The position numbers were made by a program, and so were the translations under genes. Below are positions 15,462 to 42,225 of a stretch of DNA of 42,310 nt, one piece after another (the first letter of the stretch is position 1; every line of letters starts with the position of its first letter). A model generated the notes under the pieces. The model ran no database searches. It saw only the letters and a program-made list of their open reading frames with translations, and was not told where the DNA came from. Where the stretch lies: assembly GCA_964600955.1 (NCBI GenBank), contig CAZRLV010000001.1, positions 2,277 through 44,586 on the forward strand. Direction: 5' to 3'. Origin of the DNA: an uncultured bacterium (lineage in GTDB: Bacteria; Muiribacteriota; UBA6191).

Positions 15462-15489
15462 TAAAGGTTACGGCTAAATATGCCGATAA
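15462..15489 (+). promoter_or_regulatory. Sigma-28 (FliA) promoter, distal promoter of flagellin paralog 1
   Basis: TAAAGGTT (15462..15469), 12 nt, then GCCGATAA (15482..15489). The enterobacterial consensus is TAAAGTTT-N11-GCCGATAA. The spacing matches the promoter of paralog 2. It lies about 630 nt upstream of the ATG at 16122. Confidence 0.7.
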
Positions 15490-20238: not shown

Positions 20239-20312
20239 TGGAACCAGCTATTTTTTAGAGTTTTAAAGGTATGCTATCTTAGGCGGGAAGCGAAGTCAAA
20301 CCGGATTAGTTG

Positions 20313-22659: not shown

Positions 22660-22673
22660 GATAGATGATTCGT

Positions 22674-23345: not shown

Positions 23346-23348
23346 GAT

Positions 23349-24404
23349 TTATCTCCCTGGCAACAAGCGATCAAACGGAACAGCAAAGAAGTTGGGGAAC
23401 TCTTGAAGGATTTCTGAGCGAGTGAACTCCAGGATTGAAGTCTCAAGGACTTGAGTGTAATAGATGTAGGGGTGATCCTGTGCTCCCCATCGCTTTTTAA
23501 AATCATAGACTCCGGTCTGGTCATCCCAGGTTCCACCCCAGTTCCAATATTTGAATCCTTTTGATATGGCATTCTTCATCGCTTCAATCAAAGCCAAACT
23601 TAAGGGTTGGCAATTTCGAAACTCGGGGTCCAGTGCGGGGGTAAAATATTCGACAGTCTGATTGAAATAAAAAAGCAGAACAGCGGCTACCATACGATTA
23701 TCGATCTCAGCCAGATAAAGAACATAGTCATCTTTGGCGTAGATTTCAGGGATGGTTCTAAAAAACTCCCAGGACTTTGGAATTCCTCCCAGGTCATTTA
23801 GATTGGCCCTATGCAATAGATAAAGTTTACGCAGGTCCTCAAGACTCTGAGATTTTCGGATGGTGACACCGCTCTTTTTTGCCTTGCGAATATTTCTGGA
23901 GCGGCATTTGCTAAAAGATGCGATCAATAGGCTGAGAGCTTCATCCGATGACTGGGGGAGGGGGGTAATCTGGCCTGTGCGGGCTGTTTGGAAGGTAATA
24001 GGGGTAAAGTCACCATAGTTTATGTTCATGGCACTAAATGGAGAGGAAACAAGGGTAGCGCTCAGGCATTTCTTTTCTCTGGCAAATGAAAAGAACCCGG
24101 CAATGAGTTTCTCACGTATTTCGGGGCTTCCATGGTGTTCGATACAGCCTCCGTGACTCCCGTAAAACGGGAGGGAATTCAGGACATTGCCATAGCGAGT
24201 ATTTTGTTTGAGAAATGTAGGCAGGACTCCCATGATTTTTTTATCTACGTAAACGCATAGGTAGTGGTCGGTTGCCTTGAGTACGCGCTTTAGATGCAGT
24301 CGATAAACATTGGAGGCATAAAGTTGGGTCCATGGAGAGCGCAGAAGGAAGTCGTTGTATTGGTCGAGGTCCTCCGGTTCCAGTTTTTTCAGTTCAAGAG
24401 TCAT
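23349..24404 (-). CDS. FemAB / Acetyltransf_6 (GNAT-fold) family protein
   Basis: Track ORF 23349..24539. The internal ATG at 24404 (MTLELKKLEPEDL...) limits the overlap with the upstream gene to 11 nt. Family-like region: YVLYLAEIDNRMVAAVLLFYFNQTVEYFTPALDPEFRNCQPLSLALIEAMKNAISKGFKYWNWGGT...YDFKKRWGA. Confidence 0.6.
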   Translation of the reverse strand: MTLELKKLEPEDLDQYNDFLLRSPWTQLYASNVYRLHLKRVLKATDHYLCVYVDKKIMGVLPTFLKQNTRYGNVLNSLPFYGSHGGCIEHHGSPEIREKLIAGFFSFAREKKCLSATLVSSPFSAMNINYGDFTPITFQTARTGQITPLPQSSDEALSLLIASFSKCRSRNIRKAKKSGVTIRKSQSLEDLRKLYLLHRANLNDLGGIPKSWEFFRTIPEIYAKDDYVLYLAEIDNRMVAAVLLFYFNQTVEYFTPALDPEFRNCQPLSLALIEAMKNAISKGFKYWNWGGTWDDQTGVYDFKKRWGAQDHPYIYYTQVLETSILEFTRSEILQEFPNFFAVPFDRLLPGR

Positions 24405-26418: not shown

Positions 26419-27596
26419 TGGAAGAGTTCCTCCATGACATAATTGAACTCGGAATCCGTCATTTGAGGGTAGACAGGTAGCGCAATGCTAAGTTGGTCGG
26501 CAGCCAAGGACTGAAGATAGTCCTCAGGGTTTATACCATATTTTTGCCGATAGTATTTCAAGGTATGAACCGCATGGGTTCCCTGTCGCGTGGCTATTCC
26601 CTTGTGCGCAAGTCTGAACATGAACTGATTGCGCAGTCGATTCAATTTTTCAATTTTGGACAGATTCAATTCTGCGAAATCTTCACCGCCCGTATAGAGG
26701 CAGACATAAGACTGATAGCTATGTACATATTCCTGTGGAGTGACCGGTGTCTTGAGGTGTGGGTGAGAACCTAAGGCAGCGTCATAGTTTCGGGCAATTT
26801 TGCGGCGTCCGTGAAGTATCTTCTGGGCTTTCTCAAGCTGAGTCACGCCCAGAGATGCCTGGATATCCGTCATGCGGTAATTAAATCCCCGAAGCTCAAA
26901 TTCAGGCAAGAGGCTTCCTTGCCTGGACTGGTGTCGATCCAGGTCTGAGACCGCAGCTCCATGACTTCGCAACTGATTGACCTTCTCAATTAGACTGGAG
27001 TCTTCTGTAATGAGCATTCCCCCTTCACCAGTGGTTATGGCTTTGCGGGGATGAAAAGAAAAGCAGCCAAGATCACCAAAGGTTCCAGAATGTCTGTCTC
27101 CAATCCAGCTGTCAAATCCGCAAGCCGAATCTTCAAGAATTCTGAATTCATATTTTCTACGTAGATCCAGAATCGCCGGAAGGTTGGAGCAAAGACCAAA
27201 AAGGTTGACTGGCATGACGGCCTTGATTCTGTTCTGGGTGTCCTTTTCCAAGATTTCTTCGAGTTTCGTCGTATCCAGGTTGAAATCCTGTAGGCGGATA
27301 TCACAAAAGATGACTTTTGCTCCCGTATACTCAACTGCGTTTTGAGAGGCTACATAGGTGAAGGATGGCACAACCACCTGGTCTCCCTCACCAATCCCCA
27401 GAGCAGTTAAACCCAGGTGAAGGGCGCTGGTACAGCTGGAGCAAGCGCTCGAAAATGAGGCTCCTGTAAATTGGCTAAAACGCGATTCAAACTCTTTGAC
27501 CCAAGGTCCCTGAACCAACCAGCCAGTGTCCAGGGGGCGTAAAACAGCCTCGCGGTCTTTGGAATCAAGAACTGTCTTGGTAATGGGTATCTTCAT
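26406..27596 (-). CDS. DegT/DnrJ/EryC1/StrS-family PLP sugar aminotransferase
   Basis: 396 aa. Has SCTSALHLGL and the PLP-lysine region CFSFHPRKAITTGEGGML. 4-nt overlap with the upstream gene. Confidence 0.85.
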   Translation of the reverse strand: MKIPITKTVLDSKDREAVLRPLDTGWLVQGPWVKEFESRFSQFTGASFSSACSSCTSALHLGLTALGIGEGDQVVVPSFTYVASQNAVEYTGAKVIFCDIRLQDFNLDTTKLEEILEKDTQNRIKAVMPVNLFGLCSNLPAILDLRRKYEFRILEDSACGFDSWIGDRHSGTFGDLGCFSFHPRKAITTGEGGMLITEDSSLIEKVNQLRSHGAAVSDLDRHQSRQGSLLPEFELRGFNYRMTDIQASLGVTQLEKAQKILHGRRKIARNYDAALGSHPHLKTPVTPQEYVHSYQSYVCLYTGGEDFAELNLSKIEKLNRLRNQFMFRLAHKGIATRQGTHAVHTLKYYRQKYGINPEDYLQSLAADQLSIALPVYPQMTDSEFNYVMEELFQCAE

Positions 27597-28561
27597 TGTT
27601 TGTGATTTCTGCGCCAGTCTATGAGTTTTCTAAGTCCATTTTGAAGTTCAAGATCATAATTAAAATTGATTTCCTTCGAGGCTTTCTTTGGGTTTCCAAT
27701 TCGATTAGTGACAAAGACTTCGGGAGCGGGCTCATACTGGATCGTAGCTGTGCTATCTGTCAGCTCAAGAATGAGTTTAACCAGCTCATTGATTGAGGTC
27801 TGTACTCCTGAACCAATATTATAAAACTCATTGCTGGCTTCGGATTTAAGGGCGCAGACATTGGCTCGGGCAGCGTCAGAGACATAAATGAAATCAAAGG
27901 CTTGTGAACCGTCTCCGTGAACAATAGGGGGTAATCCCTGCTCCAGACGATCCAGGATTTTCATGATGACCGCAATATACGCTCCTTTATAGTCCTGTCG
28001 GGCCCCATAGACATTCATATAGCGCAATCCGCAGTAGTTTAGACCATAGCGGTGAAAAAAGGATTTACATAGATGTTCGCCGGCTATTTTTGTGGCTCCA
28101 TAGAATGTCTTATTATTATAGATATGATCCTCTGACATTGGAATTTCCACGGCATCACCATAGACCGAAGCCGAAGAGGAATAAATAAGTTTTTTAACCC
28201 CATGTTTAACACAGGCCTCAAGCACATTGAATGTTCCCTCAATATTGACATGAAAAGCGCTGCGGGGATAGTCGTGGCAGTGCAGCAGCCATAGAGCTGC
28301 CAGGTGCACCACAAAATCACATCCTTTGACGGCTTCATCCAGAATGTCGGTGTGAAGGATATCCCCTCCTAGTTCGAAAACTCGAACACGGTCATCCTTT
28401 AGGGCATGTGAAAGGTTCTCTCTTGTACCTCGGGAGAAATTGTCATAGACAATAATTTGGTCAAAATCTTCTTGGATTAACTCATCTACAACATGAGACC
28501 CAATGAATCCGCCCCCCCCAATAACCAAGACTTTGCAACCTCGAAAATCCCAGGGTTTCAT
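27593..28561 (-). CDS. SDR-family NAD-dependent nucleotide-sugar epimerase/dehydratase
   Basis: VLVIGGGGFIGSHVV (GxxGxxG), the YGATK catalytic YxxxK, 322 aa. The glycine motif is encoded by a G8 run (plus-strand C8, 28512..28519). Confidence 0.85.
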   Translation of the reverse strand: MKPWDFRGCKVLVIGGGGFIGSHVVDELIQEDFDQIIVYDNFSRGTRENLSHALKDDRVRVFELGGDILHTDILDEAVKGCDFVVHLAALWLLHCHDYPRSAFHVNIEGTFNVLEACVKHGVKKLIYSSSASVYGDAVEIPMSEDHIYNNKTFYGATKIAGEHLCKSFFHRYGLNYCGLRYMNVYGARQDYKGAYIAVIMKILDRLEQGLPPIVHGDGSQAFDFIYVSDAARANVCALKSEASNEFYNIGSGVQTSINELVKLILELTDSTATIQYEPAPEVFVTNRIGNPKKASKEINFNYDLELQNGLRKLIDWRRNHKQ

Positions 28562-29697
28562 GTGAGGCTCCTTTCATTAAAAAATTCCTGGATAGCCTGA
28601 ATAATGCTGCTCTGATGACTCTCGGACAAAAACGCACTCATAGGCAAGGATAGGACTTCATAACACAGCTTTTTTGCACGCGGAAAGAATGCGGATCTTA
28701 ATGGACTTTTAAACACGGGTTGTTCGGGCAGAGGTTTGGGGTAGTGTACGGCTGTTGGGATTCCCAGACTAGACAAATGCTCCCTAAGTTGATCCCGCAA
28801 TGGGGTTCGACACGTAAACTGAGCCCATACTGAAGATTGGTCGGGCTCAAGTTCTGGCAAACCCAGGGCCTCCAGCGACTCCAAACCATCAAAATAGCGT
28901 AAAGCGACTCTTTGCCTTTGGGTAACTTCTTGAGGGAAATAACGCAATTTGACGAGAAGAATGGCGGCTTGTACTGAATCCAGGCGGCTATTCATGCCCG
29001 CCATAACATGGGTGTAGGTTCTGGATTCTCCTTGAGCTTTTGGGGGTAGTTCACCATGGGATTTTACCAATCTCAACTTCGCTGCAGTCTCATCCCTGTT
29101 GCAAAATACGGCGCCACCGTCACCAAAACAACCCAGAGGCTTTGAAGGGAAAAAACTGGTTGCGGCCAACTGGGTCTGACCCCCGCTGAAGCCATCACGA
29201 TTTCGTGCCCCCAGGCTCTGGGCTGCGTCTTCGATCACCACCAGATCATGAGTCTTAGCCACTCTTGATATATTTCGTAGATTACAGGTTTGGCCAAATA
29301 GGGAAACAGCCAGTATGGCTCGAGTCCGGCTGGTGATCACTCCTTCTAGAAGGTTTGGATCCAGTCCGAAACTCTTTTCTTCGACATCAACAAATACAGG
29401 GATAGCCCCAGAGAGTAGAACAACTTCAGCCGTCGCTATAAAACTGAAGGCGGGAACAATGACTTCATCACCAAGTTCCAAATCCAGAGCTTTGAGGCAA
29501 AGGAGCAGGGCATCGGTACCGCTTGCGCAGGTTACGCAGTGTTCGGTCCCGACAAATTCGCCCAATTGGGTTTCCAATTCACCGACCCAGGGGCCGTTAA
29601 TGAACCTTCCAGAATCCAGAACTTCCTCTATGGCTTTGTTAAAGTCTGCACGGTAGGCTTGAATTTGCGCATCAAGATCGGAGAAGGGAATTTTCAT
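28558..29697 (-). CDS. wbpE: WbpE/WlbC-like DegT aminotransferase (3-oxo-sugar transaminase type)
   Basis: 379 aa. The PLP-lysine region SFFPSKPLGCFGDGGAVF closely recalls WbpE-type enzymes. It sits directly downstream of the WbpB-like and WbpD-like genes. Confidence 0.7.
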   Translation of the reverse strand: MKIPFSDLDAQIQAYRADFNKAIEEVLDSGRFINGPWVGELETQLGEFVGTEHCVTCASGTDALLLCLKALDLELGDEVIVPAFSFIATAEVVLLSGAIPVFVDVEEKSFGLDPNLLEGVITSRTRAILAVSLFGQTCNLRNISRVAKTHDLVVIEDAAQSLGARNRDGFSGGQTQLAATSFFPSKPLGCFGDGGAVFCNRDETAAKLRLVKSHGELPPKAQGESRTYTHVMAGMNSRLDSVQAAILLVKLRYFPQEVTQRQRVALRYFDGLESLEALGLPELEPDQSSVWAQFTCRTPLRDQLREHLSSLGIPTAVHYPKPLPEQPVFKSPLRSAFFPRAKKLCYEVLSLPMSAFLSESHQSSIIQAIQEFFNERSLT

Positions 29698-30278
29698 TCT
29701 AAGGGTTTTCCAGTCTTGTCCAGGAAATAGACCTGATTCTTCTCAAGAACATATTTACTGGAGTCAGAGGAATCCATGGCTTTGCCGGATCTATCGAAAT
29801 GCAGTTTGTTTCCAGCCCGTGAAATCCAACCTTGATGTTTAGCGGGATTGCCATAAACCAATGCGAAATCAGGTACATCACGTGTCACTACAGAACCTGC
29901 TCCGATCAACGCGAAACGGCCTATGGTAACCCCACAAATCAACGTGGCGTTGGCACCAATGGTAGCTCCTTGCTTGACCAGAGTAGGCAGGAACTCATTT
30001 TTGCGCTCCAAAAAAGCCCTTGGATTTATGACGTTAGTGAAAACCATGCTGGGTCCCAGGAATACATGATCTTCCAGAGTAACGCCCTGATAGACCGAAA
30101 CATTATTTTGGATTTTGACTCCGTTTCCAATGACTACATGCGGCCCTATCATACAGTTTTGACCGATGATACAATCTGTGCCGATTTGAACGTCTTTTAG
30201 CAAGTGAGTGAAATGCCAAATATTGGTTCTTTCCCCAATTTGAACTCCCTTGTCGATGCATGCCGTGTTGTGGATCAT
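29694..30278 (-). CDS. wbpD: WbpD/WlbB-like hexapeptide N-acetyltransferase
   Basis: 194 aa. NIWHFTHL...IQNNVSVYQGVTLEDHVFLGPSMVFTNVINPRA matches my memory of Pseudomonas WbpD / Bordetella WlbB nearly motif for motif. Confidence 0.75.
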   Translation of the reverse strand: MIHNTACIDKGVQIGERTNIWHFTHLLKDVQIGTDCIIGQNCMIGPHVVIGNGVKIQNNVSVYQGVTLEDHVFLGPSMVFTNVINPRAFLERKNEFLPTLVKQGATIGANATLICGVTIGRFALIGAGSVVTRDVPDFALVYGNPAKHQGWISRAGNKLHFDRSGKAMDSSDSSKYVLEKNQVYFLDKTGKPLE

Positions 30279-30291
30279 AGTTTGGAATTAC

Positions 30292-31248
30292 TTAAGACCT
30301 GATACAGAAAGGGTGGTAATCACCTTTCAGTCCGGCGGGTTTGGTGTTTCTAAGGGCATGCACAATCTCAATCGATGTTTTGGTTTCTTCCAGGGAATGT
30401 CCTTGCTCATTCAGGATTTCATGGTAGCACCGCGAATGCAAATTTGTGAAACCATGACTGAAATCCAGCTCTTCCCCGTTTATACATATGGAGCGATAGG
30501 GCTGGTCTTCCAGCGACTTTTGTCTTGGCGGTAAATCAAGCTTGGAAATGGACAAAAACCAGCGAATCCGTGCATGCTTCAGTTCCAGAAAGCCTGCGCA
30601 ATAGGTCTCATTTGAGACATGAACCACTGACTTCTCGATCTTTCCAAAAATCCAACAGAGGAGATCAAAGAAATGGATACCGATATTCGTAGCAATGCCG
30701 CCGGAACGTGAGATATCACCTTTCCAGGAGTAGTTGTACCATTTGCCTCGCGGGGTGATATAACTCAGGTCGATGTCCCATTTTTTCTTTGGGTTTTGAT
30801 CTATCTCGAACCAGGTCTTGTGGGCAAGGTCTTGAAGCGCAGGATGGCTGCGTAGTTGTAGAATGGGATAGATCTTGTACCCACTTTCGCTCTCAACCTC
30901 CTGTAGAGCGTCAATATTCCAAGGGTTGAGTACCAGTGGCTTCTCACAAATCGCATGAGCCTGACTTCTGAGGGCAAAACGGATATGAGCGTCATGGAGA
31001 TAGTTTGGGGAGCAAATGGAAATATACTCTGGTTTTTTTCCCTTGCGCTTTAGCTTTTCAATATGTCGGTCAAAGCGCTCAAATTCCGTAAAGAAGTCAG
31101 CTTCAGGGTAATAAGAATCAATAATCCCTACACTGTCACAGGGGTCCAAAGCCGCCAGTAGATCTCCATGGCATTCTCTCATGGCCCTCATATGCCTTGG
31201 TGCGATATATCCTGCCGCACCAATCAGGGCAAATTTTGGTTGTCTCAT
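30292..31248 (-). CDS. wbpB: WbpB/WlbA-like Gfo/Idh/MocA oxidoreductase
   Basis: Track ORF 30292..31341. The internal ATG at 31248 (MRQPKFALIGAAGYIAPRHMRAM...) avoids a 76-nt overlap with pruA. FALIGAAGYIAPRHMRA, SVGIIDSYYPEADFFTEFERF and YISICSPNYLH are WbpB-like. Confidence 0.75.
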   Translation of the reverse strand: MRQPKFALIGAAGYIAPRHMRAMRECHGDLLAALDPCDSVGIIDSYYPEADFFTEFERFDRHIEKLKRKGKKPEYISICSPNYLHDAHIRFALRSQAHAICEKPLVLNPWNIDALQEVESESGYKIYPILQLRSHPALQDLAHKTWFEIDQNPKKKWDIDLSYITPRGKWYNYSWKGDISRSGGIATNIGIHFFDLLCWIFGKIEKSVVHVSNETYCAGFLELKHARIRWFLSISKLDLPPRQKSLEDQPYRSICINGEELDFSHGFTNLHSRCYHEILNEQGHSLEETKTSIEIVHALRNTKPAGLKGDYHPFCIRS

Positions 31249-31265
31249 AGGAGGTCTGTCAGGTC

Positions 31266-32897
31266 TTAAGTTTTCAAAAAGGGGTAGCGATAGTCTCGTG
31301 GCGGAACGAAAGTTTCTTTGATCGTTCTCGGACTCAGCCATCGTAGGAGGTTATTCTTGGCACCCGCCTTATCATTTGTACCGCTGGCACGTCCTCCTCC
31401 AAAAGGTTGTTGTCCCACCACGGCACCCGTTGGTTTGTCATTGATATAAAAATTGCCCGCTGAGTTTCTAAGGGCATCCAGTGCAAAATCAATGGCGTAG
31501 CGGTCTTTGGAGAAAACGGCTCCCGTGAGTGCATAAGGCGAAGTGGAGTCTACGAGTTTCAAGGTTTCTTCCCACTCAGAATCGGGGTAGATATAAACGG
31601 TCATCACCGGTCCAAAAATTTCCTCACGCAAGGTTTTGAAGTTTGGATCAGAAGCGAGGATAACCGTAGGTTCTATAAAATATCCCATGGAGTCATCGCA
31701 TTTTCCACCCATGAGAATCCTGGCGTCCGGCGAAGCTTCAGCGGCAGCGATATACCCTGAAATTTTATTGTAAGCACGTTGGTCGATGACCGCGTTGACA
31801 AAATTCCCAAAATCTTCCACTGGGCCAGTCTTGATACTCTCCAAGTCTTTTTTTAGAAGAGGGTGAACCTCATCCCAGAGACTCTGAGGGAGATAGACCC
31901 GTGAGACCGCTGAACATTTTTGGCCCTGGAACTCAAAGGCCCCGCGAATCATAGCCGTGGTTAACTCCTGGGGGTCTGCCGATGGGTGGGCGACAATAAA
32001 ATCCTTGCCTCCCGTCTCACCCACAATGCGGGGGTAAGAGCGGTATTGGTCGACGGACTGACCCACGGTTTTCCAAAAAGATTGAAAGGTAGCAGTGGAC
32101 CCGGTGAAGTGAATGCCTGCCAGGTCTGGATGCATCAGAGCCGACCTTGAGAATTCCTCTTGAATTCCAAAAACCGCATTAATAACCCCGGGGGGTAGTC
32201 CGGCTTCTTCGAAGATTTTTAAGAGGATATGAGCCGAATAGATCTGGGTGTCCGCAGGTTTCCAGACCACGACATTTCCGAGCATGGCCGGAGTAAGCGC
32301 AAGGTTGGCGGCAATGCAGGTGAAATTAAAGGGAGTCACCGCCGCGACAAACCCTTCAAGGGGGCGGTACTCCATGCGATTCCAAGTGGCCGGGGAGTTT
32401 TTTCGTGGTTGCTCGCTATAGATTTCCTGCATGTACTTGACATTGAAGCGTAGAAAATCTGCCAACTCGCAAACGGCGTCGATCTCTGACTGGTAGGCGT
32501 TTTTAGATTGTCCCAGCATGGTGGCAGCGTTAAGTCTCTGACGCCAGGGACCTGAGATGAGATCCGCCATTTTTAAAAAGATCGAGGCGCGGCTTTCCCA
32601 GGACAAAGTAGCCCACTGCTTTTGAGCCTCAAGGGCATTATGAATGGCCTCGCTTACCAGGTCCTCATTTCCAACATGAAAATTGCCTAAAATATGGCCA
32701 TGGTCGTGAGGACAGATACAGGGTTTTATTTTTCCTGTTCGGATCTCTTTTCCTCCAATAACCATGGGGATGTCCAGACATTGGGACCTCAATTCTCTGA
32801 GTTGAGCCTGTAGTTCCTCTCGTTCAGGACTCCCTGCGGTATAGTTGCCAACGGGTTCGTTTTCGGGTTCAGGAAGATTGGCAAGGCTGATTTTCAT
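31266..32897 (-). CDS. pruA: L-glutamate gamma-semialdehyde (1-pyrroline-5-carboxylate) dehydrogenase
   Basis: 543 aa aldehyde dehydrogenase. Has the ETGGKD catalytic-Glu region (IVGETGGKDF), the catalytic Cys region (FEFQGQKCSAVSRVY) and a long PruA-type N-terminal extension. Confidence 0.8.
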   Translation of the reverse strand: MKISLANLPEPENEPVGNYTAGSPEREELQAQLRELRSQCLDIPMVIGGKEIRTGKIKPCICPHDHGHILGNFHVGNEDLVSEAIHNALEAQKQWATLSWESRASIFLKMADLISGPWRQRLNAATMLGQSKNAYQSEIDAVCELADFLRFNVKYMQEIYSEQPRKNSPATWNRMEYRPLEGFVAAVTPFNFTCIAANLALTPAMLGNVVVWKPADTQIYSAHILLKIFEEAGLPPGVINAVFGIQEEFSRSALMHPDLAGIHFTGSTATFQSFWKTVGQSVDQYRSYPRIVGETGGKDFIVAHPSADPQELTTAMIRGAFEFQGQKCSAVSRVYLPQSLWDEVHPLLKKDLESIKTGPVEDFGNFVNAVIDQRAYNKISGYIAAAEASPDARILMGGKCDDSMGYFIEPTVILASDPNFKTLREEIFGPVMTVYIYPDSEWEETLKLVDSTSPYALTGAVFSKDRYAIDFALDALRNSAGNFYINDKPTGAVVGQQPFGGGRASGTNDKAGAKNNLLRWLSPRTIKETFVPPRDYRYPFLKT

Positions 32898-32909: not shown

Positions 32910-33380
32910 TTAAAGGCTATAGCGTTTTTCAAGGCCCCGAAGAAGCCCCAGGGCTTTTTCCATGATGGAAATATTCTGGTCCATAATTAATTGAATAGCA
33001 GACTTCAAGGTTTTAGGAGAGTCCACCGTGAGAATCATAGCCGTCTTGAACTGGGGATTTTTTAAAGCCATGACCTTGATTCCCAGGGCGCGGACTTCGT
33101 TTGCAAGAGGGGTATCGAAATGATAAGAGACTAAACCCATGGCCTCAGCTTTTTTATAGATCTCACGGTCGCGTGTTTCAAGATTCAATTTGAGATCAAA
33201 CAGAGCTTGCAGATCGAATTCACCCATTTTCCCAGCCGGAATCAGAAACTCGCAAAACCAGTTTCGAAACAGAAAGTATGGACAATGATTTTCACGGCCC
33301 GCGTCCTCACGAACGACCTCTCCCTCGGGGAAAGCCTCCTCAAGTTCGGCTAAAACACTATTGATTTGATCGGGACTCAT
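32910..33380 (-). CDS. Hypothetical protein (156 aa)
   Basis: ATG preceded by GGAGG at 7 nt. No family recognised. It is the first gene of the tightly packed array 33380->20943. Confidence 0.6.
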   Translation of the reverse strand: MSPDQINSVLAELEEAFPEGEVVREDAGRENHCPYFLFRNWFCEFLIPAGKMGEFDLQALFDLKLNLETRDREIYKKAEAMGLVSYHFDTPLANEVRALGIKVMALKNPQFKTAMILTVDSPKTLKSAIQLIMDQNISIMEKALGLLRGLEKRYSL

Positions 33381-33511
33381 CCAAAAACCTCCGCAACCAA
33401 GATCGTACTATATTCTTAGCGGAGAAGAAAGGCTGTGATGATGACCCCCTCAGCCTAATTCCCCGTCTACCTTCTCCACCAATTCTGCATGGGTTTTTGC
33501 AAAAAAATGAT

Positions 33512-34699
33512 TCAGAATCTTGCGGACTTCTGATTTTTTTTCTGGGCTGGTGGGTTTTTGGCGCATTCAAGTAATTTTTGAGGGTTTCCAAGCACACCAT
33601 AAATCTTTAGGCATTGATGGAAGACAAAGGGATCAGGGCCAAAGACGGATTCGAATTCCTGATAGCACGCTAAGGCTTCTTCAAACCGTTGCTTACATGA
33701 ATAGAGAAAACCCAGGTTATAAAGAATTTCCGCACGAAAAAACTGAATTTCAGAAACCTTATTCAGGACCTTATGAATTTTCTCATACCAGAGAAGAGCT
33801 TCGGATTCATCCTTGCCTACGAAGGCAGCACGTGCTTTACGCAGCCAGAGCATGGGCGAATCAGGATTTAGTGTAGAGACAATTTTTTCCCAGACTTCTA
33901 CATCATCTTCTGGTTTTCTCGGGACCTTGAGAGGAAATTCCATCAACCACCCATAAACGGATTCTGCAAGAAACACTCGCAAATTTCCACTTGAGCTATT
34001 GAAGGCTTCTACCAGGAGATCTAGGATCTTGATCTCACCATTCCAGTGGCTCTGGGCATAGTAATAGACGAAGGATGGTTCCCTTCCCATCTGCTCAAAA
34101 TGCTTATCTAGCAGTCCCTTGTTTCTCTCAATTTTTTCCTCGTAGCGTGACCCTGCATAACCCAGATGATAGACCTTAGTATCGATCTGGGTGAATCCAA
34201 AGTTTTTTGCCTCCAAAGAAGGGACTACAGTTTCATGAATGGGGTTTTGAAACTGGATTCCAAGCCCGTTTCTAAAAAGGCGTACAAAAGTATTGCTGTC
34301 ATTAATGCTATGGATTTGAAGATCATGGCTAGTCCAATTCATAGTTTTCAAGCTGACACAGGACAATGAATAGGCACTTGCGTCTGACTTTGATATAAGG
34401 GCACGCAGTTGAAGTAAATCTTCGCCCCGCAGTCTTTCGTCAATATCCAAACTTAGAATCCATTCACCCCTGGCCTGCGATAGGGCAAAATTACGGGCAG
34501 CTGAAAAATCATCTATCCAGGTAAAGTCAAAATAAGGTAGGGAACGTTGCCTGAGAATATCAAGACTGGTGTCCGTAGATCCTGTATCCACCAGAACCAA
34601 TTCATCACAATAGGGGAGAATCATATCCAAAAACTCAGGAAGAAAGAGTTCTTCGTCGCAAAAAATAGCGCAGACGCTTAGTAATTTCTGGGTATCCAT
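33512..34699 (-). CDS. GT2-family glycosyltransferase fused to a C-terminal TPR-like domain (paralog 1)
   Basis: N-terminal GT-A motifs SVCAIFCDEE, LVLVDTGSTDTS, FSAARNF and the DxD motif LSLDIDERL. The helical C-terminal half has TPR-like units (FFRAEILYNLGFLYSCKQRFEEALACYQEF). It aligns along its whole length with 38241..39536. Confidence 0.75.
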   Translation of the reverse strand: MDTQKLLSVCAIFCDEELFLPEFLDMILPYCDELVLVDTGSTDTSLDILRQRSLPYFDFTWIDDFSAARNFALSQARGEWILSLDIDERLRGEDLLQLRALISKSDASAYSLSCVSLKTMNWTSHDLQIHSINDSNTFVRLFRNGLGIQFQNPIHETVVPSLEAKNFGFTQIDTKVYHLGYAGSRYEEKIERNKGLLDKHFEQMGREPSFVYYYAQSHWNGEIKILDLLVEAFNSSSGNLRVFLAESVYGWLMEFPLKVPRKPEDDVEVWEKIVSTLNPDSPMLWLRKARAAFVGKDESEALLWYEKIHKVLNKVSEIQFFRAEILYNLGFLYSCKQRFEEALACYQEFESVFGPDPFVFHQCLKIYGVLGNPQKLLECAKNPPAQKKNQKSARF

Positions 34700-34748
34700 G
34701 ATCTTGCAAAGTGAATATACTACAGGATTGTAAAGATTGGAGGATGTG

Positions 34749-35126
34749 ATGCAAGAACTTAAATCAAAAAATGCGCCAGCAGCTATTGGGCCTTATTCTC
34801 AGGGAGTCGAATCTGGGGGGATTTGCTATTTTTCAGGTCAAATCGGGCTCAGCCCTGAATCAGGTAAAATGGTTGAAGGTGACTTCGGGGTTGAGGCCAG
34901 GCAGGTTATGGAAAATATCGGAGCCATGCTAGAGTCGAGCGGACTTGGATTTAATCAAATTCTCAAAGTGAATATTTCCCTGACCGATATGGGGGAGTTT
35001 CCAGTTTTTAATGAGATCTACGCCTCCTATTTCCACGAGCCCTACCCGGCTCGCGCCTGCGTAGCCGTAGCCGCTCTGCCCAAAGGGGCCAGAGTCGAAG
35101 TGGAAGTTATTGCCACAAGGCGATAA
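34749..35126 (+). CDS. ridA: RidA/YjgF/UK114-family reactive-intermediate deaminase
   Basis: APAAIGPYSQGV...ISGQIGL...ARACVAVAALPKGARVEVEVIA. ATG at 34749, 4 nt after GGAGGA (the track ORF starts at TTG 34737). Confidence 0.85.
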   Translation: MQELKSKNAPAAIGPYSQGVESGGICYFSGQIGLSPESGKMVEGDFGVEARQVMENIGAMLESSGLGFNQILKVNISLTDMGEFPVFNEIYASYFHEPYPARACVAVAALPKGARVEVEVIATRR

Positions 35127-35130
35127 AAAC

Positions 35131-37770
35131 TTAAAATAACAATGTCAGGGCGGTTTGACCCAAGGCGTTGGCTTGAATCAACTGTGCGGTTCCAGCTTGA
35201 ACCAGGATCTGAGAGCGTGTGAAATCCACGGTTTCTTTGGCGATATCCACATCTCGAATCTGGGATTCGGCGGCGGCCAGATTTGTGGTTGTACTGGTTA
35301 AATTATCCACGGTTGTATTGAGGCGATTTTGAAATGAACCTAGTTTTGATTGTTCAGTGGTGATTTGTCCCACGGCAGAATCAATGGAGGCCAAAGCCCG
35401 CGTAGCTGCTTTGATATTGGTTACATCCAGAGCTTCAACCCCCAGAGATTCCGCGCTGGTATTGGCCAAAGGAAAGCGGAGATGCTGTCCCTGATTTGCA
35501 CCGACTTGAAAGCGCATACTGCGATCCGAAACATGGAGATTGAATTCTTCTCGTCCACTGCCCTGGGCCTGACTATTGAAATTGATTCCAAAGGCGTTCA
35601 GTCCCGTGTTTTGGGACGCTAGATTGGAAAACAGGGTAATTCTGGAGTTTGTACCCGGTGAGCGTGAGAAAAAGTCCAGACGATTTCCTCCATCAAACCC
35701 AAAGTCCACATCCGTGGAACCAATAGAGCTAGAGTTGAGAATCGAGGAAACCTGAGTGGAGCCAATGGCAAAGGACTCTCCCGTAGAGCTGACATTGGAG
35801 GTTCCAAAAGTAATGGTTCCGGTCTGCACCCCTGTTTCATCTGAGGCCCTAAAGCTCATGAAGCTATTGAGTACAAAGGTGGATTCTACCTCAAAACTGG
35901 AGTTAGTATTGCCTGAGAAACTGGCAACACTTCCCCCGGTCCCTGTGTCCGTTTGTCCATCTACCAGACCCAATTCCGCCAGGGAGCCCCCACCAAAGGA
36001 TGTGATCGAAAGCCTTGAGTCATCCCCCGTTTCGGTGGAAATGATTTCGAGAAACCCTGCCGCGGTGACCGAAGCGCTGGCTTTAATATTATTGGCTGTA
36101 AAATAATTATTAAACTCAGAGGTTATGGATGCAGAAGAGATCAGGGTTGCCCGGTTGAAAGTAATATCATTTACGGTGGAAGACGGGCCCCCAGTATTGA
36201 AGTCACCATCACCCAGCTGAATTCTTAATACTCCTGTACCCGCAATGCTGACTCCAGCTGATACATCGGCAGTTCCTGTAAAAAGAGCTGAACTTCCCCC
36301 ACTACCCGTAACTTTTCCAGGGGTTAGGCCCAGAGTGGTTTGCGCGGCCCCATTTGCGGTCAGGGAGATTTCTCCAGATGTACCCGTCTTATTTGAGCTT
36401 AGGACTAGATTGAATCCGTTGAAACTGGCTGTAACCCCAGGAGTTTGATAACTACTTGAAGTGGTGGGTGCGGTCAGAGGATCTGTGGGATCATTGGCGG
36501 CTGAAATCGAATTATTGATCATCGACTCTATCGAAGTCAGGGTGTAGGTCCTTGAGGCTGTGAGGGTGACCGTGACACCGGCCGTGATACTGCCCAGGGT
36601 TTGTCCATTGTCCTGAGCATTGGTATCGTGAAAGGTAAAGACGGCGTCGCTGTTTCCAATTTTCAGTCCCTGCACTCCGGCAACCGTTCCATCGAGTCGT
36701 GCCTCCTTGGCTAAGTCAAATCCGATGACCAGCCCGTCCAAAACCCCCGAAGCTCTCTGAGAAGTGGTGTTGGCACTAAAGGTTTCAGGGCTGCTGACTC
36801 CGGTTTCAGTGGCTGAGACCCGAAATCCGGGGTCCCTGGATTCGACCGTGGTTTGCATGGCCAGCGCATTGATAAAATCCTCTTCAGCTGCAAGGCTGAG
36901 CTCTCCGCTGCGGCCGTCTTTTCCTCCTTGGAAGATGAACTGTCCCGTAGAGGAGTTATAGGCAAAGGTAGCCCCGGACATATTCAGTCCGCCTTGACTA
37001 TCATCCGCCTGTAGAGCCGCCTCAATACTGCGGGAAAAATCTTCCAGCGTGGTATCCCCCGATATGGTGAGATCGCTTCGGCGTCGATTACCACGTAGGG
37101 TCAACGTGATGGGATCCTCCAAAATAGAGTTACTTTCAGCATCAAACATGCTGTCAAGATCTCTCAACTCAGTGGTTAAACTGGCGATTTGCCCTGTAGT
37201 TTGGTCCGTTTGAATGCCAGATTTCTGTTCCTGTTTTTCGCCAAAACTATTGCGTTGCACCGAAATTCTATATTCTCCTGGACGGATGGTTCCGCCAGTT
37301 TGAAAGGCTCGCCCATCCTCTCCATCTGTGGAAACGAGAGCCGATGCGCTTCCATCGAGAAGACTGCGGGTATTAAATTCAGTGGATGCGGAGAGTTGAT
37401 CAATCTCAGAAATGGCAAGATCCACCTCTTTTTGGATTTCGATACGATCATCGACAGTAAGTGCATCTGACTGCGCCTGGATCGAAAGGTCTCTAAGCCG
37501 ATTTAGAATTTCTGTATGTTCTCCCAGGGCTCCGTCAGCCGTTTGTATAAGGGAGATCCCGTCCTGAGCATTGGATACAGCACGATTGGTCCCGCGGATT
37601 TGTGAACGGAGTTTTTCCGCCACGGTCAATCCTGACGGATCATCCGCGCCCCGATTAATACGCAAGCCTGAAGAAAGACGTTCTATTGAACGTGCTAAGC
37701 CCTGTTGATTCTTAAACAGGTTCACCCGGACCCTCAGGGCCGGAATATTATTATTGACACGAAAACCCAT
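35131..37770 (-). CDS. fliC: Giant flagellin paralog 2 (879 aa), the only intact copy
   Basis: N-terminal D0/D1 (MGFRVNNNIPAL...LSSGLRINRGADDPSGL...ISLIQTADGAL) and C-terminal D1/D0 (KLGSFQNRLNTTV...IRDVDIAKETVDFTRSQILVQAGTAQLIQ) flank a roughly 600-aa S/T/G-rich insert. ATG preceded by GGAGGG. Confidence 0.95.
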   Translation of the reverse strand: MGFRVNNNIPALRVRVNLFKNQQGLARSIERLSSGLRINRGADDPSGLTVAEKLRSQIRGTNRAVSNAQDGISLIQTADGALGEHTEILNRLRDLSIQAQSDALTVDDRIEIQKEVDLAISEIDQLSASTEFNTRSLLDGSASALVSTDGEDGRAFQTGGTIRPGEYRISVQRNSFGEKQEQKSGIQTDQTTGQIASLTTELRDLDSMFDAESNSILEDPITLTLRGNRRRSDLTISGDTTLEDFSRSIEAALQADDSQGGLNMSGATFAYNSSTGQFIFQGGKDGRSGELSLAAEEDFINALAMQTTVESRDPGFRVSATETGVSSPETFSANTTSQRASGVLDGLVIGFDLAKEARLDGTVAGVQGLKIGNSDAVFTFHDTNAQDNGQTLGSITAGVTVTLTASRTYTLTSIESMINNSISAANDPTDPLTAPTTSSSYQTPGVTASFNGFNLVLSSNKTGTSGEISLTANGAAQTTLGLTPGKVTGSGGSSALFTGTADVSAGVSIAGTGVLRIQLGDGDFNTGGPSSTVNDITFNRATLISSASITSEFNNYFTANNIKASASVTAAGFLEIISTETGDDSRLSITSFGGGSLAELGLVDGQTDTGTGGSVASFSGNTNSSFEVESTFVLNSFMSFRASDETGVQTGTITFGTSNVSSTGESFAIGSTQVSSILNSSSIGSTDVDFGFDGGNRLDFFSRSPGTNSRITLFSNLASQNTGLNAFGINFNSQAQGSGREEFNLHVSDRSMRFQVGANQGQHLRFPLANTSAESLGVEALDVTNIKAATRALASIDSAVGQITTEQSKLGSFQNRLNTTVDNLTSTTTNLAAAESQIRDVDIAKETVDFTRSQILVQAGTAQLIQANALGQTALTLLF

Positions 37771-37938
37771 ATTCCCTCCATGGCAAGTATCGGCAGGGAA
37801 GAGAGGGGGGGGTGAGTACGGTGATAACGGGTAGGGTTGAATTAGAGGCCAAAGGCTCTAAAAACCTTCCAATTTCCAAAGAAAATATCTATGGTCCAGT
37901 TTTTTTATAAAAACGGGAGTTTTTTTCCTTCTCTCAAG

Positions 37939-37966
37939 GTATCGGCAAAATTGGGACAAAACTTTA
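37939..37966 (-). promoter_or_regulatory. Sigma-28 (FliA) promoter of flagellin paralog 2
   Basis: The minus strand reads TAAAGTTT (37966..37959), 12 nt, then GCCGATAC (37946..37939). A T8 tract lies just upstream. The leader is about 160 nt. Confidence 0.75.
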
Positions 37967-38054
37967 GAGTGATTTGAAAAAAAACAGAAATTTTTTGCTG
38001 GAGGGTCAAGGAGGGGAGAGTTCCCGAATCCAAGATCCGGGAACTCTCTCTCTA

Positions 38055-38113
38055 TGGAAGATTCTGGTTCTAACTGGCCCACAGTCAAAAATAGGAAACC
38101 TTCAGAAGAATTC
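38055..38113 (-). repeat. 59-bp element (right inverted repeat) containing motif copy 4
   Basis: The reverse complement reads gaattcttctgaaggtttcctatttttgactgtgggccagttagaaccagaatcttcca. It is the inverted partner of 18973..19035. Confidence 0.8.
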
Positions 38114-38240
38114 CACCTGAATATTCGGTAGTCTTGTATGGTCTTTAAACCTCAAGGTAAAGCGTTTATATATAAATAACTCAATATACTATAAAAATAC
38201 TTGCGTTTATGGGCTTTTTTGCCCCACACAAAAAATTCTC

Positions 38241-39536
38241 CTAGAGGGCCGCTTTTTTCATGAACTTTTCTCGAACTTCCTTTTTTCCCCTAAAATCAAG
38301 GGCGTCCAGGAAGCTGAGCAGTTCTTTTCGCTTGGGCTCGTCAAGACTCGATAATTTTCGGGGAAAATTTTTGATCTCCGAGATAAAACCAGGGTAGTCT
38401 TTAGCCGCGAAAAGCAGTTTCAGAATCTGATGATAGCTGCCTTCATTACGGCCTTCGCGTGCCTCAAGAATTCGAACGCATTCCATGGCTTCCTTGAGAC
38501 GACCTTCCATGGCGTAGAGAACTCCAAGGCGATCCAAAACCTCTTTCCAGACCTCGGGGCGTAGAGCCTCGAAACTCAGTCGTTTCTTTACGGTTTCATA
38601 AGCTGAGCGCGCCTCTCCAATCTTTGCATTTGTAAAATGTCTCCTGGCCCGCCGGAGAAAAACGAAGGCGGCTTGAGGATTGATTTTCAAGAGTGCCTTT
38701 TCCCAATCTATTGCGGACCTGTCCGAATCCATAGGGGGGGGCCCAAACTCATCGATCCACGCCAGAGCTCTCTCGGCGATGGCGTAGGCAAGTGCAGTTT
38801 TAGCACGCGTAAATGCTTGACTGAGAAGCATATAGACTTGCGGTTCACTGGACCAGATCAAGGTCGTGTAATTGAAGATAAAATCTGGATTTTGAGGATC
38901 TTTATTAAAATTAACGCGAATAATTTCTTCATTGCGTTGGTCCTTCAAAGGACAGAGTTTGTCTACATAGCCCAGATGGTAAACCGGCAGATCCAGGTTT
39001 TCAATGCACCCTGCTTTTTCCTGGATCACGGAGTCAATGGTTTCGTGAACCGGGTTTTGATAGTGAAATCCAAGGTGGTTGCGAAAAACCATCAATCGGG
39101 CCTGGACATCCTTTACGGGTACATCTGACCTCTGCCAGTCAAAACTATTGACACTGATATACGAGAGATAAAAAGCATCGGCATGGGTCTCTGGCAGAAG
39201 ATCAAGGAGCTTTTTTAGCGTCGCTCTCGGAATGCGATCATCTACGTCCAAAACCAGAATCCAGTCCCCGGTTGCCTTTTGAAGACTGAAGTTTCGCGCG
39301 GCGGAGAAGTCCTGAACCCACTCAAAATACAAGGGTGATAATCCCCGGTTTTCAAGAATCTTCAGACTTCGGTCCGTACTGCCGGTATCCACCAAAATGA
39401 GTTCGAAAGAACCATGGCTTACTTCGTCTAGACAAGACAAACAGTCTAAAAAATCAGGAAGGAAGCCTTCTTCATTTCTGAAAATGGTACAGACTGAGAC
39501 TTTGGGTGTGGTCACGGTGTTGATTATAACACTCAC
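38241..39536 (-). CDS. GT2-family glycosyltransferase fused to a C-terminal TPR-like domain (paralog 2)
   Basis: SVCTIFRNEE, LILVDTGSTDRS, FSAARNF, DxD motif LVLDVDDRI, and TPR-like C-terminus (VLDRLGVLYAMEGRLKEAMECVRILE). GTG start. Contains a C8 run (plus-strand G8, 38734..38741) encoding GPPP. Confidence 0.75.
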   Translation of the reverse strand: MSVIINTVTTPKVSVCTIFRNEEGFLPDFLDCLSCLDEVSHGSFELILVDTGSTDRSLKILENRGLSPLYFEWVQDFSAARNFSLQKATGDWILVLDVDDRIPRATLKKLLDLLPETHADAFYLSYISVNSFDWQRSDVPVKDVQARLMVFRNHLGFHYQNPVHETIDSVIQEKAGCIENLDLPVYHLGYVDKLCPLKDQRNEEIIRVNFNKDPQNPDFIFNYTTLIWSSEPQVYMLLSQAFTRAKTALAYAIAERALAWIDEFGPPPMDSDRSAIDWEKALLKINPQAAFVFLRRARRHFTNAKIGEARSAYETVKKRLSFEALRPEVWKEVLDRLGVLYAMEGRLKEAMECVRILEAREGRNEGSYHQILKLLFAAKDYPGFISEIKNFPRKLSSLDEPKRKELLSFLDALDFRGKKEVREKFMKKAAL

Positions 39537-39544
39537 AGAAAGTG

Positions 39545-39570
39545 AGAGGCTCCCTGTTGGGGGAGCCTCT
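39545..39570 (-). terminator. GC-rich hairpin between flagellin 3 and the GT2-TPR gene (weak terminator/attenuator candidate)
   Basis: On the minus strand: AGAGGCTCCC, loop CCAACA, GGGAGCCTCT (10-bp perfect stem), followed only by CACTTTCTGTG with no clean U tract. Confidence 0.3.
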
Positions 39571-39624
39571 AATGCCTTCCATGGCGGTCAGGGCCTTCCG
39601 TGGCTTTCACGGTTGACAAAGGAT

Positions 39625-42225
39625 TTATGAAAGAAGCGAAAGCGCTCCCTGATTAAAGCCCTTAGTTTGCGCCAACTGAGCCGTAGCCGCCTGCGTGAGG
39701 ATTTGATCTCGCGTAAAATCAACGGTTTCTCTGGCAATATCCACATCGCGAATCTGGCTCTCAAATGAGCTTTGATGAATATGCGATGAGGTTAGAGTGT
39801 TGACGGCCGAGCGTTTTGGATCGACCCAAGTTTGGATCTTTCAGACGAGACTCTGGCAATGGCGTCATCCACCTTTCCTAGAGCCTTGGTGGCACTATGG
39901 ATATTTGTGATGTCTAAGCCGCGTAGTCCGAGAGCTTCAGAGCTGGCATTGGCCACCTGAAAACCAAGGGTTTGTCCCTGATTAGCCCCGACTTCAAATT
40001 GAAGCGTTCTATCGGTGACGTGCAGATCGAAATTGATTATCCCTGTACCCTGAGTCTCTTTATTGAAGTCAATTCCAAAGGAGTTTTGCCCAACAATCTG
40101 TGAGGAATTATTGGATGTGAGGACAATTTTGGCATTGTTTCCAGGACTGCGCGAGATAAAATCAAGGTTTCCAGCCACATCGAAGGAGTAGCTGACCCCG
40201 GTACTGCCAAGACTGCTATTATCCAGGATAGATGAGAGTTGGGACTGACTGATGGTGAAAGACTCCGTACTGCTGGTATTGGCAGTCCCAATGAAAATAT
40301 TTCCCGAAGAGCCGCCATTTTGGTCGATAACGGAAAACTGCATATAGCCGCCGAGTGTATATCCGGTGGTCAGATTGGTCGAGTTGGTGGATCCCGTATA
40401 GATAGCAGCCGTTCCAGCCGCTCCCATGGCGCTTGATCCCGAGACCATACCTATGGCCGCCATGGAGGCACTCGAAGTGATTGATATCCGTGCGTCACTG
40501 CCGCTTTCGGTGGATCTCAGCTCCAAAATTCCTCCGCTATTAATGGCCGTGGCTTTAACCCCCTCGGCCGCGAAATAATTATTGAACTCGTTTATGATGG
40601 AGGCGGCGGTAATGACGACTCCCTGATTGAAAGTGATATCGCTGGATGTGGCTGAAGCCCCCTGGTTAAAGTCTCCATCGCCGACTTGGATACGAATGAC
40701 TCCAGTGCCGCCAAAAGCAACTCCACCGGCGATAATTGCCCCTGAGAGCAGGGCATCAGAACCTCCAGCTCCGGTAATGGCGGTGCTCGCGATTCCAAGC
40801 ACTGCAGAAGCCTGGGCATTGGCTGCGATGGAAATAGTGCCACTGGTTCCGGTATCAGACGAGGTTATTGAGGGGGTCGAAATTGACCGTAAAGCCGGGG
40901 ACACGATAGGAGCTGCTGGTGGGGCCCGTTAGAGCATTGGTGGGGTCATTAGCCGCAGCAACGGCATTGGTAATCATGGTGGTTACCGAAGTTGTACTAT
41001 AGGTGCGACTGGCTGTCAGAGTAATCGTGACCCCGGCGCTGATACTGCCAGTCGTCTGACCGTTATCTCCGGCATTCGTGTCATGAATGGTAAAGACTAC
41101 ATCCGTGTCATTGGTTTGAATGGAATCCGTCCCTGTCAATTCACCGTCCACACGGGCCTCAGTGGCTAATTCAAAGGAGATGTCCAACCCTCCGAGAATT
41201 CCAAAGGCTCGATCGGATGTAGTTTCGGTGGAGTAAAACTCCGGTGTGGCAACTCCTTTCTGAGTTGCAGTTACCTTATAAGCGGCGGCTTCGGCCTCCA
41301 CTGAAATTTTAAAGGCCAGGGCGTTGACGATGTTTTCGTCGGCAGCAAACGACAACTCACCGGAGTCTCCAGCTTTCCCGGCATTATAGACAAACTGGGC
41401 TGTGGAGTTATCAAACTTAAATACAGAGCTAGCGATTCCAAGTCCTCCGTCTTCTTCATCACGAAGAATAGCGTTTTGCACTTTGTTGGCAAATTCCTCC
41501 ACACTCATCGTGCTGTTCATTTGAATTTCCACCTGGTTTCCATTTCCGCGCAGAGTCAGGGTTTCAGGATTTCCTAAAAAATTGTTCCCCTGAGAGTCAC
41601 TCATGCTGATCAGGTCGCCCAGGCGCGTATTTAGACCAGCCTCACGCTCGGTTTTAGAGCTTCTTTGGATGGCTCCGGTGAGTTCCTGGCGATTGCCGAC
41701 ATTGAGCAGGGAAAGTTCCACTGCATAGTCCCCGGCCGCGATGGATTCACCAGTCTGAAAAGCTCCAAGCTCTTTTTTGTCGGTAGAGGCTAAACCTGCG
41801 GCACTTCCGTCAATTAGCTTTTTGGTATTGAACTCTGTGGTCTGGGAGATTCGATCCACCTCGGTGATTAATTCATCCACTTCTTTTTGAAGCTCCATAC
41901 GGTCGTTGGTAGTCAGAGCATCATTCTGACTCTGAATGGATAGTTCACGGATGCGGTTTAAGATGGCATGATCTTCGTTAAGGGCCCCCTCGGCAGTTTG
42001 AATCAACGAAATGCCGTCCTGAGCATTACCAATGGAGCGGCTTAAACCGCGAATCTGGGAGCGGAATTTCTCTGAGATAGTGAGACCGGCAGCATCGTCG
42101 GCCCCGCGATTGATACGAATTCCAGAAGAAAGTCGTTCAATGGATTGGCTGAGTCCCGACTGATGTCGTCTCAAGTAACTCTGCGTGTTTAACGCAGGAA
42201 TATTTTCGTTAATTCGAAAACCCAT
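39625..42225 (-). pseudogene. fliC: Giant flagellin paralog 3 disrupted by two compensating frameshifts
   Basis: Flagellin homology runs through three frames: 42225..~40877 (track ORF 40855..42225), the +1 frame (track ORF 39792..40904), then back to the first frame for the last ~62 codons. That last stretch, in my translation, reads ...RSAVNTLTSSHIHQSSFESQIRDVDIARETVDFTRDQILTQAATAQLAQTKGFNQGALSLLS*, with stop at 39627..39625. Total length is 2601 nt = 867 x 3. Confidence 0.85.

Follow-up and report, generated by a model that had tools for sequence, protein, structure and literature searches.

Two paralogous open reading frames (ORFs) lie on the minus strand of a 42,310-nucleotide stretch of DNA from an uncultured bacterium (GTDB lineage Bacteria; Muiribacteriota; UBA6191), corresponding to positions 2,277 to 44,586 of contig CAZRLV010000001.1 in assembly GCA_964600955.1 and referred to here, over its full length, as the window. 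Each encodes an N-terminal glycosyltransferase (GT) domain of the GT2 family followed by a helical domain of the tetratricopeptide repeat (TPR) type. The genes, GT2-TPR 1 (33512..34699, 395 amino acids as read in the window) and GT2-TPR 2 (38241..39536, 431 amino acids), are interspersed with genes for very large flagellins and lie to one side of a cluster of sugar-nucleotide modification genes. As argued below, both products are likely to be soluble, cytoplasmic flagellin O-glycosyltransferases resembling GmaR of Listeria monocytogenes and acting on the giant flagellins that surround them.

Flagellin 2 (35131..37770, minus strand) is intact; its 879-residue product matches both Flagellin_N and Flagellin_C, serine and threonine make up 26% of its central region, and it is most likely the substrate of the GT2-TPR proteins. 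Flagellin 3 (39625..42225, minus strand) is broken by two frameshifts, one near 40857 and the other near 39810, so that its N-terminal part and its tail are in one frame and some 1.1 kb of the middle in another. The same breaks are found in an independent scaffold from another assembly (L006); this is either a pseudogene, or else flagellin paralogues were joined into a chimera during assembly. Flagellin 1 (16122..18800, plus strand), on the far side of the sugar cluster, carries an in-frame TGA codon at 18018-18020, at a place where flagellin 2 has glycine (FT*NT versus FSGNT). An alternative genetic code in which TGA is read as glycine was considered for this gene and rejected, since TGA ends 11 of 29 well-supported ORFs.

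The coordinates bear out the original prediction that, among the genes of the minus strand, each GT2-TPR gene directly follows one for a flagellin. GT2-TPR 2 starts at 39536, 88 nucleotides past the flagellin 3 stop codon, which ends at 39625, and only the convergent ridA gene separates flagellin 2 from GT2-TPR 1. This gene (34737..35126, plus strand), which encodes a Rid-family deaminase, is convergent with flagellin 2, their stop codons being 4 nucleotides apart, and divergent from GT2-TPR 1, with 37-49 nucleotides between the two starts on opposite strands. Any co-transcription of GT2-TPR 1 with flagellin 2 would have to cross ridA in the antisense direction.

The sugar-nucleotide modification island occupies positions 19090..31341, on the minus strand except for one methyltransferase ORF at 20310-20999 on the plus strand. 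It encodes a Gfo/Idh/MocA oxidoreductase, a hexapeptide acetyltransferase, two DegT aminotransferases, an SDR epimerase/dehydratase, an AsnB-type amidotransferase, a FemAB-like protein, a GH130-like protein and methyltransferases; an acetyltransferase of the NeuD/PglB/VioB family scores above its curated cutoff. Flagellin 1 brackets the island on one side and the two GT2-TPR genes with flagellins 2 and 3 (33512-42225) on the other. Sugar-nucleotide and glycosyltransferase genes are thus flanked by flagellin genes, and the layout of the locus is that of a flagellar glycosylation island. The island likely supplies the donor sugar. In family scans of the window neither a nonulosonic-acid synthase nor a transferase for cytidine monophosphate (CMP) was found. 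A link between the GT2-TPR family and the sugar pathway of the island is further supported by the family member P0019, whose gene is directly followed by genes for a Gfo/Idh/MocA protein and a hexapeptide transferase.

The paralogy of the two proteins is beyond doubt, their similarity being far beyond what the sequences would share by chance (36% identity over 373 amino acids in BLASTP, E = 3e-74). The motifs singled out in the original prediction (SVC.IF..EE, LVDTGSTD.S, DFSAARNF and LD.D.R) are seen in the pairwise alignment and are conserved or invariant in 25 members of the family. Both N-terminal halves match Pfam Glycos_transf_2 above threshold, with 48.8 and 74.4 bits, and both retain every family-invariant residue, including DTGSTD, D97/D99, H164-E165 and H187-G189. 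In GT2-TPR 2, Pfam and the structural model place a GmaR-like GT-A domain at residues ~13-190 and a TPR-like helical domain at residues 195-428. Matches of the Pfam TPR models to either sequence taken alone are below threshold.

The allele of GT2-TPR 1 present in the window is truncated at its C-terminus. Scaffold L006 is 99.85% identical to the window over 14 kb, the only differences being two single-nucleotide polymorphisms and a 19-nucleotide segment, which is missing from the window between 33547 and 33546. The deletion is flanked by a CAG microhomology. It shifts the frame of the last ~40 residues, so that 13 unrelated ones take the place of the tail conserved in the family; in its intact form, carried by L006, the protein has 422 amino acids. 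The remnant of the ancestral tail (SPEKKSEVRKILNHFFAKTHAELVEKVDGELG) can still be read out of frame at 33450..33546 on the minus strand, as established by three-frame translation against the relative P0022 and base-level alignment to L006, and its C-terminal motif is conserved in the family. The GT2-TPR 1 protein of this strain, deprived of the tail, may be impaired.

The closest solved relative by sequence is the GT domain of GmaR (PDB 22ao), which is matched by GT2-TPR 2 with E = 7.8e-25 and by GT2-TPR 1 with E = 1.1e-23. With a family profile the match reaches E = 1.4e-44, well ahead of other GT2 structures. With single window proteins, the glycocin S-glycosyltransferases SunS and ThuS reach no better than 1e-7 to 1e-11, and the scores of other GT2 enzymes are lower still. 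The family profile also matches ThuS, across both the GT and the C-terminal regions. When the fold rather than the sequence is compared, the ranking differs. The AlphaFold2 model of GT2-TPR 2, built from the family alignment with a predicted local distance difference test (pLDDT) score of 90.7, shows an alpha/beta GT-A domain at ~13-190 followed by 13 paired helices at 195-428, and a Foldseek search of the PDB with this model has full-length ThuS and SunS at the top of its list (E = 3e-16 to 1e-14). When the C-terminal halves alone are made into a profile, consensus TPR proteins are matched with E = 2e-34 to 2e-21; the C-terminal domain of ThuS is matched too, but weakly. The C-terminal half is thus TPR-like, as had been proposed, on the strength of both the modeled helices and the profile matches. 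No transmembrane segments are predicted in either protein. GmaR-like sequence, a ThuS/SunS-like fold, a TPR profile and the lack of membrane segments together point to a soluble, substrate-guided protein glycosyltransferase.

The close full-length family comprises about 25 representatives, all of them from metagenomes or metagenome-assembled genomes (MAGs), and three GTDB species representatives carry members of it. Neighbor-joining and reciprocal best hits resolve it into five clades. GT2-TPR 1 belongs to clade C1 and GT2-TPR 2 to a sub-branch of clade B, and each has orthologues in other genomes with 49-69% identity. The clade C1 gene is embedded in a conserved block, made up of one or more flagellin genes, ridA, the GT gene, a gene for an orphan protein of ~156 residues, an aldehyde dehydrogenase gene and a flagellin gene on the opposite strand, which is present in all five genomes concerned (the window, the P0002/P0021 contig, L011, L089 and L090); the antisense ridA wedge between flagellin and GT genes is kept in the five. 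Likewise, the clade B sub-branch gene lies between two giant flagellin genes in 3 of 3 genomes (the window, the P0002 contig and L092). A different arrangement is found for clade A, the remainder of clade B and clade C2, the members of which form tandem trios of GT2-TPR paralogues preceded by a conserved 276-residue protein with a signal peptide and followed by an S-adenosylmethionine-dependent methyltransferase, usually together with a sulfotransferase (L001 7700-14606, L003 6362-13232, L005, L007 and the P0003 contig, for example). At L009 the neighborhood is trio-like with only two tandem GT genes, and the methyltransferase was not detected there. In one MAG (GCA_964539825.1) a trio coexists with a C1 gene embedded among flagellin genes.

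These relationships do not agree with two other parts of the original prediction. It had interpreted the locus as a duplicated cassette of flagellin plus GT2-TPR gene, but the two GTs belong to separate clades of ancient origin, with nearest relatives elsewhere that stand in tandem trios; the tree, the pattern of best hits and the 49-69% identical orthologues in other genomes rule out a recent duplication of the cassette. It had also assigned one GT to each flagellin and suggested paralog-specific glycosylation. In the closest relative the same two GTs are surrounded by six or more giant flagellins, and L089 has four flagellins for one GT; in the window itself, flagellin 3, the presumed partner of GT2-TPR 2, is frameshifted. 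It is more likely that the two enzymes are old paralogues that differ in the site, step or sugar they handle than that each serves one flagellin.

Association with flagellin genes extends well past the close family. In a scan restricted to one genome per species, 80 loci with relatives were examined in Ignavibacteriota, Bacillota, Planctomycetota, Desulfobacterota, Calditrichota and other groups, and a gene of the flagellin family was found within 10 kb at 29 of them, 23 of these having it within 3.5 kb. For loci with at least 8 kb of sequence on both sides the fraction is 20 of 45. Typical genome size and number of flagellin loci lead us to estimate a chance expectation of ~1% for a random gene, so that flagellin adjacency is strongly enriched. 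About 17 of the 29 linked loci show robust matches to both flagellin termini; the others, which often stand in tandem arrays, match the N-domain less strongly, and proteins of the FlgL type might be among them. Examples from Bacillota are Tumebacillus flagellatus (L021), with 100 nucleotides between GT and flagellin genes, and Alicyclobacillus (L080), with 2 kb. Taken with the clade C1 and clade B loci described above, these counts show that homologues in other genomes do occur next to flagellin genes, contrary to the notion that they never would.

The original prediction viewed the two proteins as dedicated flagellin glycosyltransferases, and this is probably correct: homology to GmaR, the GT-A plus TPR fold, the conserved linkage and the sugar island all speak for it, while the substrate itself is one that we infer. 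From homology and genomic context, we propose that flagellin is O-glycosylated in the cytoplasm before export. The N-terminal GT-A domain would bind an amino sugar activated with uridine diphosphate (UDP), along with a divalent metal, through the motifs DTGSTD, the D-x-D of LDVDDR, HE and YHLGY, all of which are invariant in the family. The C-terminal TPR solenoid would serve as the flagellin-binding module, holding the protein while sugar is transferred to serine or threonine residues of the Ser/Thr-rich central region, ahead of secretion through the flagellar type III apparatus. The donor would probably be a UDP-linked di-N-acylated amino sugar, or a uronic or amide derivative of one, made by the enzymes of the adjacent island.

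The precedents for such a system are instructive for the differences as well as for the similarities. GmaR, a beta-O-GlcNAc transferase that doubles as an antirepressor of MogR, shares with the window proteins the motifs DTGSTD, DFSAARNF, D.D, HE, YH.GY and K..RN, the placement of TPR-type helices directly after the catalytic domain and the genetic association with flagellin. Its GT domain transfers N-acetylglucosamine (GlcNAc) to flagellin, and the 637-residue protein is divided into four domains, GT being followed by TPR, linker and antirepressor, with 27 helices beyond the catalytic part; the antirepressor activity resides in the C-terminal domain, within a non-catalytic part of ~460 residues (PMC9638930). 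The window proteins are considerably shorter (422-431 residues, counting the intact form of GT2-TPR 1), have ~235 residues and 13 helices after the GT domain and lack both linker and antirepressor domains, and no partner of the MogR type is known here. The family profile covers GmaR141-637 (7X9R) over chain residues 9-237 only, and the profile of the C-terminal halves does not retrieve GmaR. A regulatory sideline of the kind seen in GmaR, raised by the original prediction, is therefore unlikely for proteins that end at about residue 430. The flagellins of the host, at ~880 residues, and the donor, which is probably not plain GlcNAc, set the system further apart from that of Listeria.

As to the role of the TPR domain, the statement that it engages flagellin in both GmaR and Caulobacter FlmG holds in full for the second protein only. 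Binding of flagellin by the GmaR TPR domain has been proposed (PMC9638930), whereas the TPR domain of FlmG was found experimentally to bind flagellins and to be required for their modification (PMC7591256). FlmG has its TPR domain at the N-terminus and a GT-B domain at the C-terminus and transfers pseudaminic acid (PMC7591256). The window proteins, with GT-A first and TPR last, do not share the FlmG architecture; by analogy, they may nonetheless resemble FlmG in the use of a TPR module to recruit flagellin to a cytoplasmic GT, one enzyme serving several flagellin paralogues. Another parallel is offered by the flagellin glycosyltransferases predicted in Clostridium and other Bacillota, in which a GT2-TPR gene stands among flagellin and sugar-nucleotide genes; in the glycosylation islands of Clostridium, the combination of GT2 and TPR already serves as a diagnostic signature of such enzymes (PMC13317340). 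Most Bacillota relatives differ from the window proteins in being longer (~590-750 residues) and rich in canonical TPRs, and they align over the GT half only (41-55% of the query). The lineage considered here is unrelated to the Bacillota hosts, and uncultured.

A number of observations weigh against this interpretation. In sequence, the C-terminal domain bears no specific likeness to the TPR domain of GmaR, as judged from the profile of the C-terminal halves. No flagellin gene is found within 10 kb of the trio-type paralogues in L001-L005, L007 and L009; at the P0003 contig the nearest is 7 kb away from the trio. The conserved block includes the metabolic genes ridA and aldehyde dehydrogenase, and part of the synteny may simply reflect shared ancestry. 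Neither GT gene is directly preceded by a sigma-28 promoter. Lastly, flagellins 1 and 3 and the tail of GT2-TPR 1 are disrupted in the window, as though the locus were decaying or its assembly imperfect.

The main alternative, and an unlikely one in our judgment, is that the proteins are protein or peptide glycosyltransferases with a substrate other than flagellin, such as the 276-residue secreted protein or a glycocin-like peptide, their position among flagellin genes being incidental. It draws on the Foldseek ranking, on the general resemblance to SunS and ThuS (GT-A domain, C-terminal TPR-like substrate-binding domain, similar total length and the best full-length structural match) and on the SunS model TIGR04195 being the best non-generic NCBIfam match; furthermore, the trio paralogues always follow the conserved secreted protein and do so without an adjacent flagellin gene. 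But the scores obtained with the SunS model, 53 and 39.6 bits, are far removed from its cutoff of 350, which does not place the proteins in the SunS/ThuS family, and GmaR is far closer by sequence. SunS and ThuS, moreover, share only ~16% identity with the window proteins and modify cysteines of small peptides. The annotated ORFs of the window include no glycocin precursor peptide, no ABC transporter with a C39 peptidase, or other export gene for such a peptide, and no thiol-disulfide oxidoreductase; small ORFs were listed for 37771-38240 only, the intergenic region between GT2-TPR 2 and flagellin 2, where nothing convincing was seen. In addition, the flagellin adjacency of both clades represented in the window is kept in every genome examined.

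A second possibility is decay of the locus in this particular strain, leaving a remnant in which one or both GTs no longer function. The 19-nucleotide deletion with its microhomology, which takes away the conserved tail of GT2-TPR 1, the two frameshifts of flagellin 3 seen in two assemblies and the nonsense codon of flagellin 1 would all fit. Yet GT2-TPR 2, flagellin 2 and the sugar island in its entirety show no damage, the invariant residues are kept in both GTs, GT2-TPR 1 is whole in the sister scaffold, and the flagellin breaks could have arisen if paralogous genes were collapsed or fused into chimeras during assembly. We regard decay as improbable; even if it had occurred, it would be compatible with a flagellin-modifying function at the level of the family. 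A role as ordinary polysaccharide GT2 enzymes, using the neighboring amino-sugar genes to build an envelope glycan (lipopolysaccharide O-antigen, capsule or exopolysaccharide), is highly improbable, for although generic GT2 models (EpsD, TuaG, ArnC-like) match the proteins, the island resembles di-amino-sugar pathways of the O-antigen type and source databases call the relatives "glycosyltransferase involved in cell wall biosynthesis", those matches are all far under their cutoffs, the GTs combine a TPR protein-binding domain with the absence of transmembrane segments, family scans of the island matched no Wzx flippase, Wzy polymerase, initiating phosphoglycosyltransferase or export family, none of six island and neighboring proteins checked (three of them from the island) has a transmembrane segment, and the strong linkage of the family to flagellin would not be expected of envelope enzymes.

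A perfect match to a sigma-28-type promoter (TAAAGTTT-N12-GCCGATA) is present upstream of flagellin 2 (37940..37966, minus strand) and a match with one mismatch upstream of flagellin 1 (15462-15488, plus strand). Flagellin genes of L011, L089 and L090 are preceded by this motif as well, and it was not found at trio loci; judged from these sequences, the FliA consensus appears to be kept in this uncultured lineage. A weak match with three mismatches occurs at 35108-35134 on the minus strand. Promoters belonging to the GT genes themselves, of either the sigma-28 or the sigma-70 type, were considered and rejected, as the sigma-70 scan gave matches at the level of shuffled sequence and the sigma-28 motifs are confined to flagellin genes. 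Between the flagellin 3 stop codon and the start of GT2-TPR 2 there is a hairpin with a G+C-rich stem of 10 base pairs (39545..39570, minus strand; z-score -3.3), which looks like a terminator or attenuator, and a comparable hairpin followed by a U-tract separates flagellin and GT genes in L092. An Rfam scan of the window gave zero matches. Ribosome-binding sites of the strong GGAGG type precede the flagellin genes, and good Shine-Dalgarno sequences are missing from the GT genes. Because terminator-like hairpins or the antisense ridA gene intervene and the Shine-Dalgarno sequences are weak, the GTs would be made at a low level, by read-through from the sigma-28 promoters of the flagellin genes.

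The occurrence of five clades invites a broader speculation, namely that this lineage expanded its GmaR-like GTs and divided the labor among them, the flagellin-embedded enzymes priming particular sites or subsets of the giant flagellins and the trios then assembling a glycan, methylated or sulfated, either on flagellin or on another secreted protein. We think this rather unlikely; if true, it would represent an unusually elaborate form of protein glycosylation relying on TPR-guided GT-A enzymes only. In its more sober form, the analysis opens no new mechanism and settles no open question, the two proteins being most likely ordinary enzymes of the GmaR type and not a new system. It does extend the GmaR-like GT2-TPR family past Bacillota to a deep-branching uncultured lineage with flagellins of ~880 residues. 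The compact GT plus TPR form, free of regulatory domains and available as a high-confidence model, could help in studying how a TPR domain selects flagellin. The association with flagellins of this size, the clade expansion accompanied by methyltransferase and sulfotransferase trios and the strain-level 19-nucleotide deletion lend the locus a mild interest of their own. On the practical side, we advise annotation as flagellin/protein O-glycosyltransferase; the label "cell wall biosynthesis glycosyltransferase" is likely wrong.

Several neighboring genes deserve mention. Directly downstream of the clade C1 GT gene in all five genomes is the orphan gene of the conserved block (32910..33380, minus strand, 156 amino acids in the window). 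Its product has no match in Pfam or NCBIfam, and 11 HMMER representatives among 1.84 billion proteins and two word-index matches were found for it. The AlphaFold2 model is of low confidence (pLDDT 56), with the topology alpha-beta3-alpha...alpha. The protein could be an accessory factor; a more specific assignment as glycosylation factor or chaperone was dropped, given the missing family match, the few relatives and the low-confidence model.

At the other end of the island, adjoining flagellin 1, is a gene for a 382-residue protein (19090-20238, minus strand) with no match in Pfam or NCBIfam. It contains the stretch GGYGISSVEALSLGNIVL, which we take to be reminiscent of the nucleotide-sugar binding motif of GT-B (GT4-like) enzymes, and it may be a third glycosyltransferase of the locus, encoded within the island itself.

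Farther away, positions 1860-8120 of the minus strand encode two very large TPR proteins in tandem (903 and 823 amino acids) and a HEAT-repeat protein. In related genomes a similar protein of ~900 residues and a TPR protein of 260 residues precede the trio loci. The host belongs to a deep, poorly sampled lineage, and the labels given to it at NCBI may not be reliable. For its PheS (10195-11241, minus strand), the nearest relatives with a name are MAGs labeled Candidatus Cloacimonetes, with 66% identity, and the next nearest are from Nitrospinota and Aquificota, with ~58% identity.

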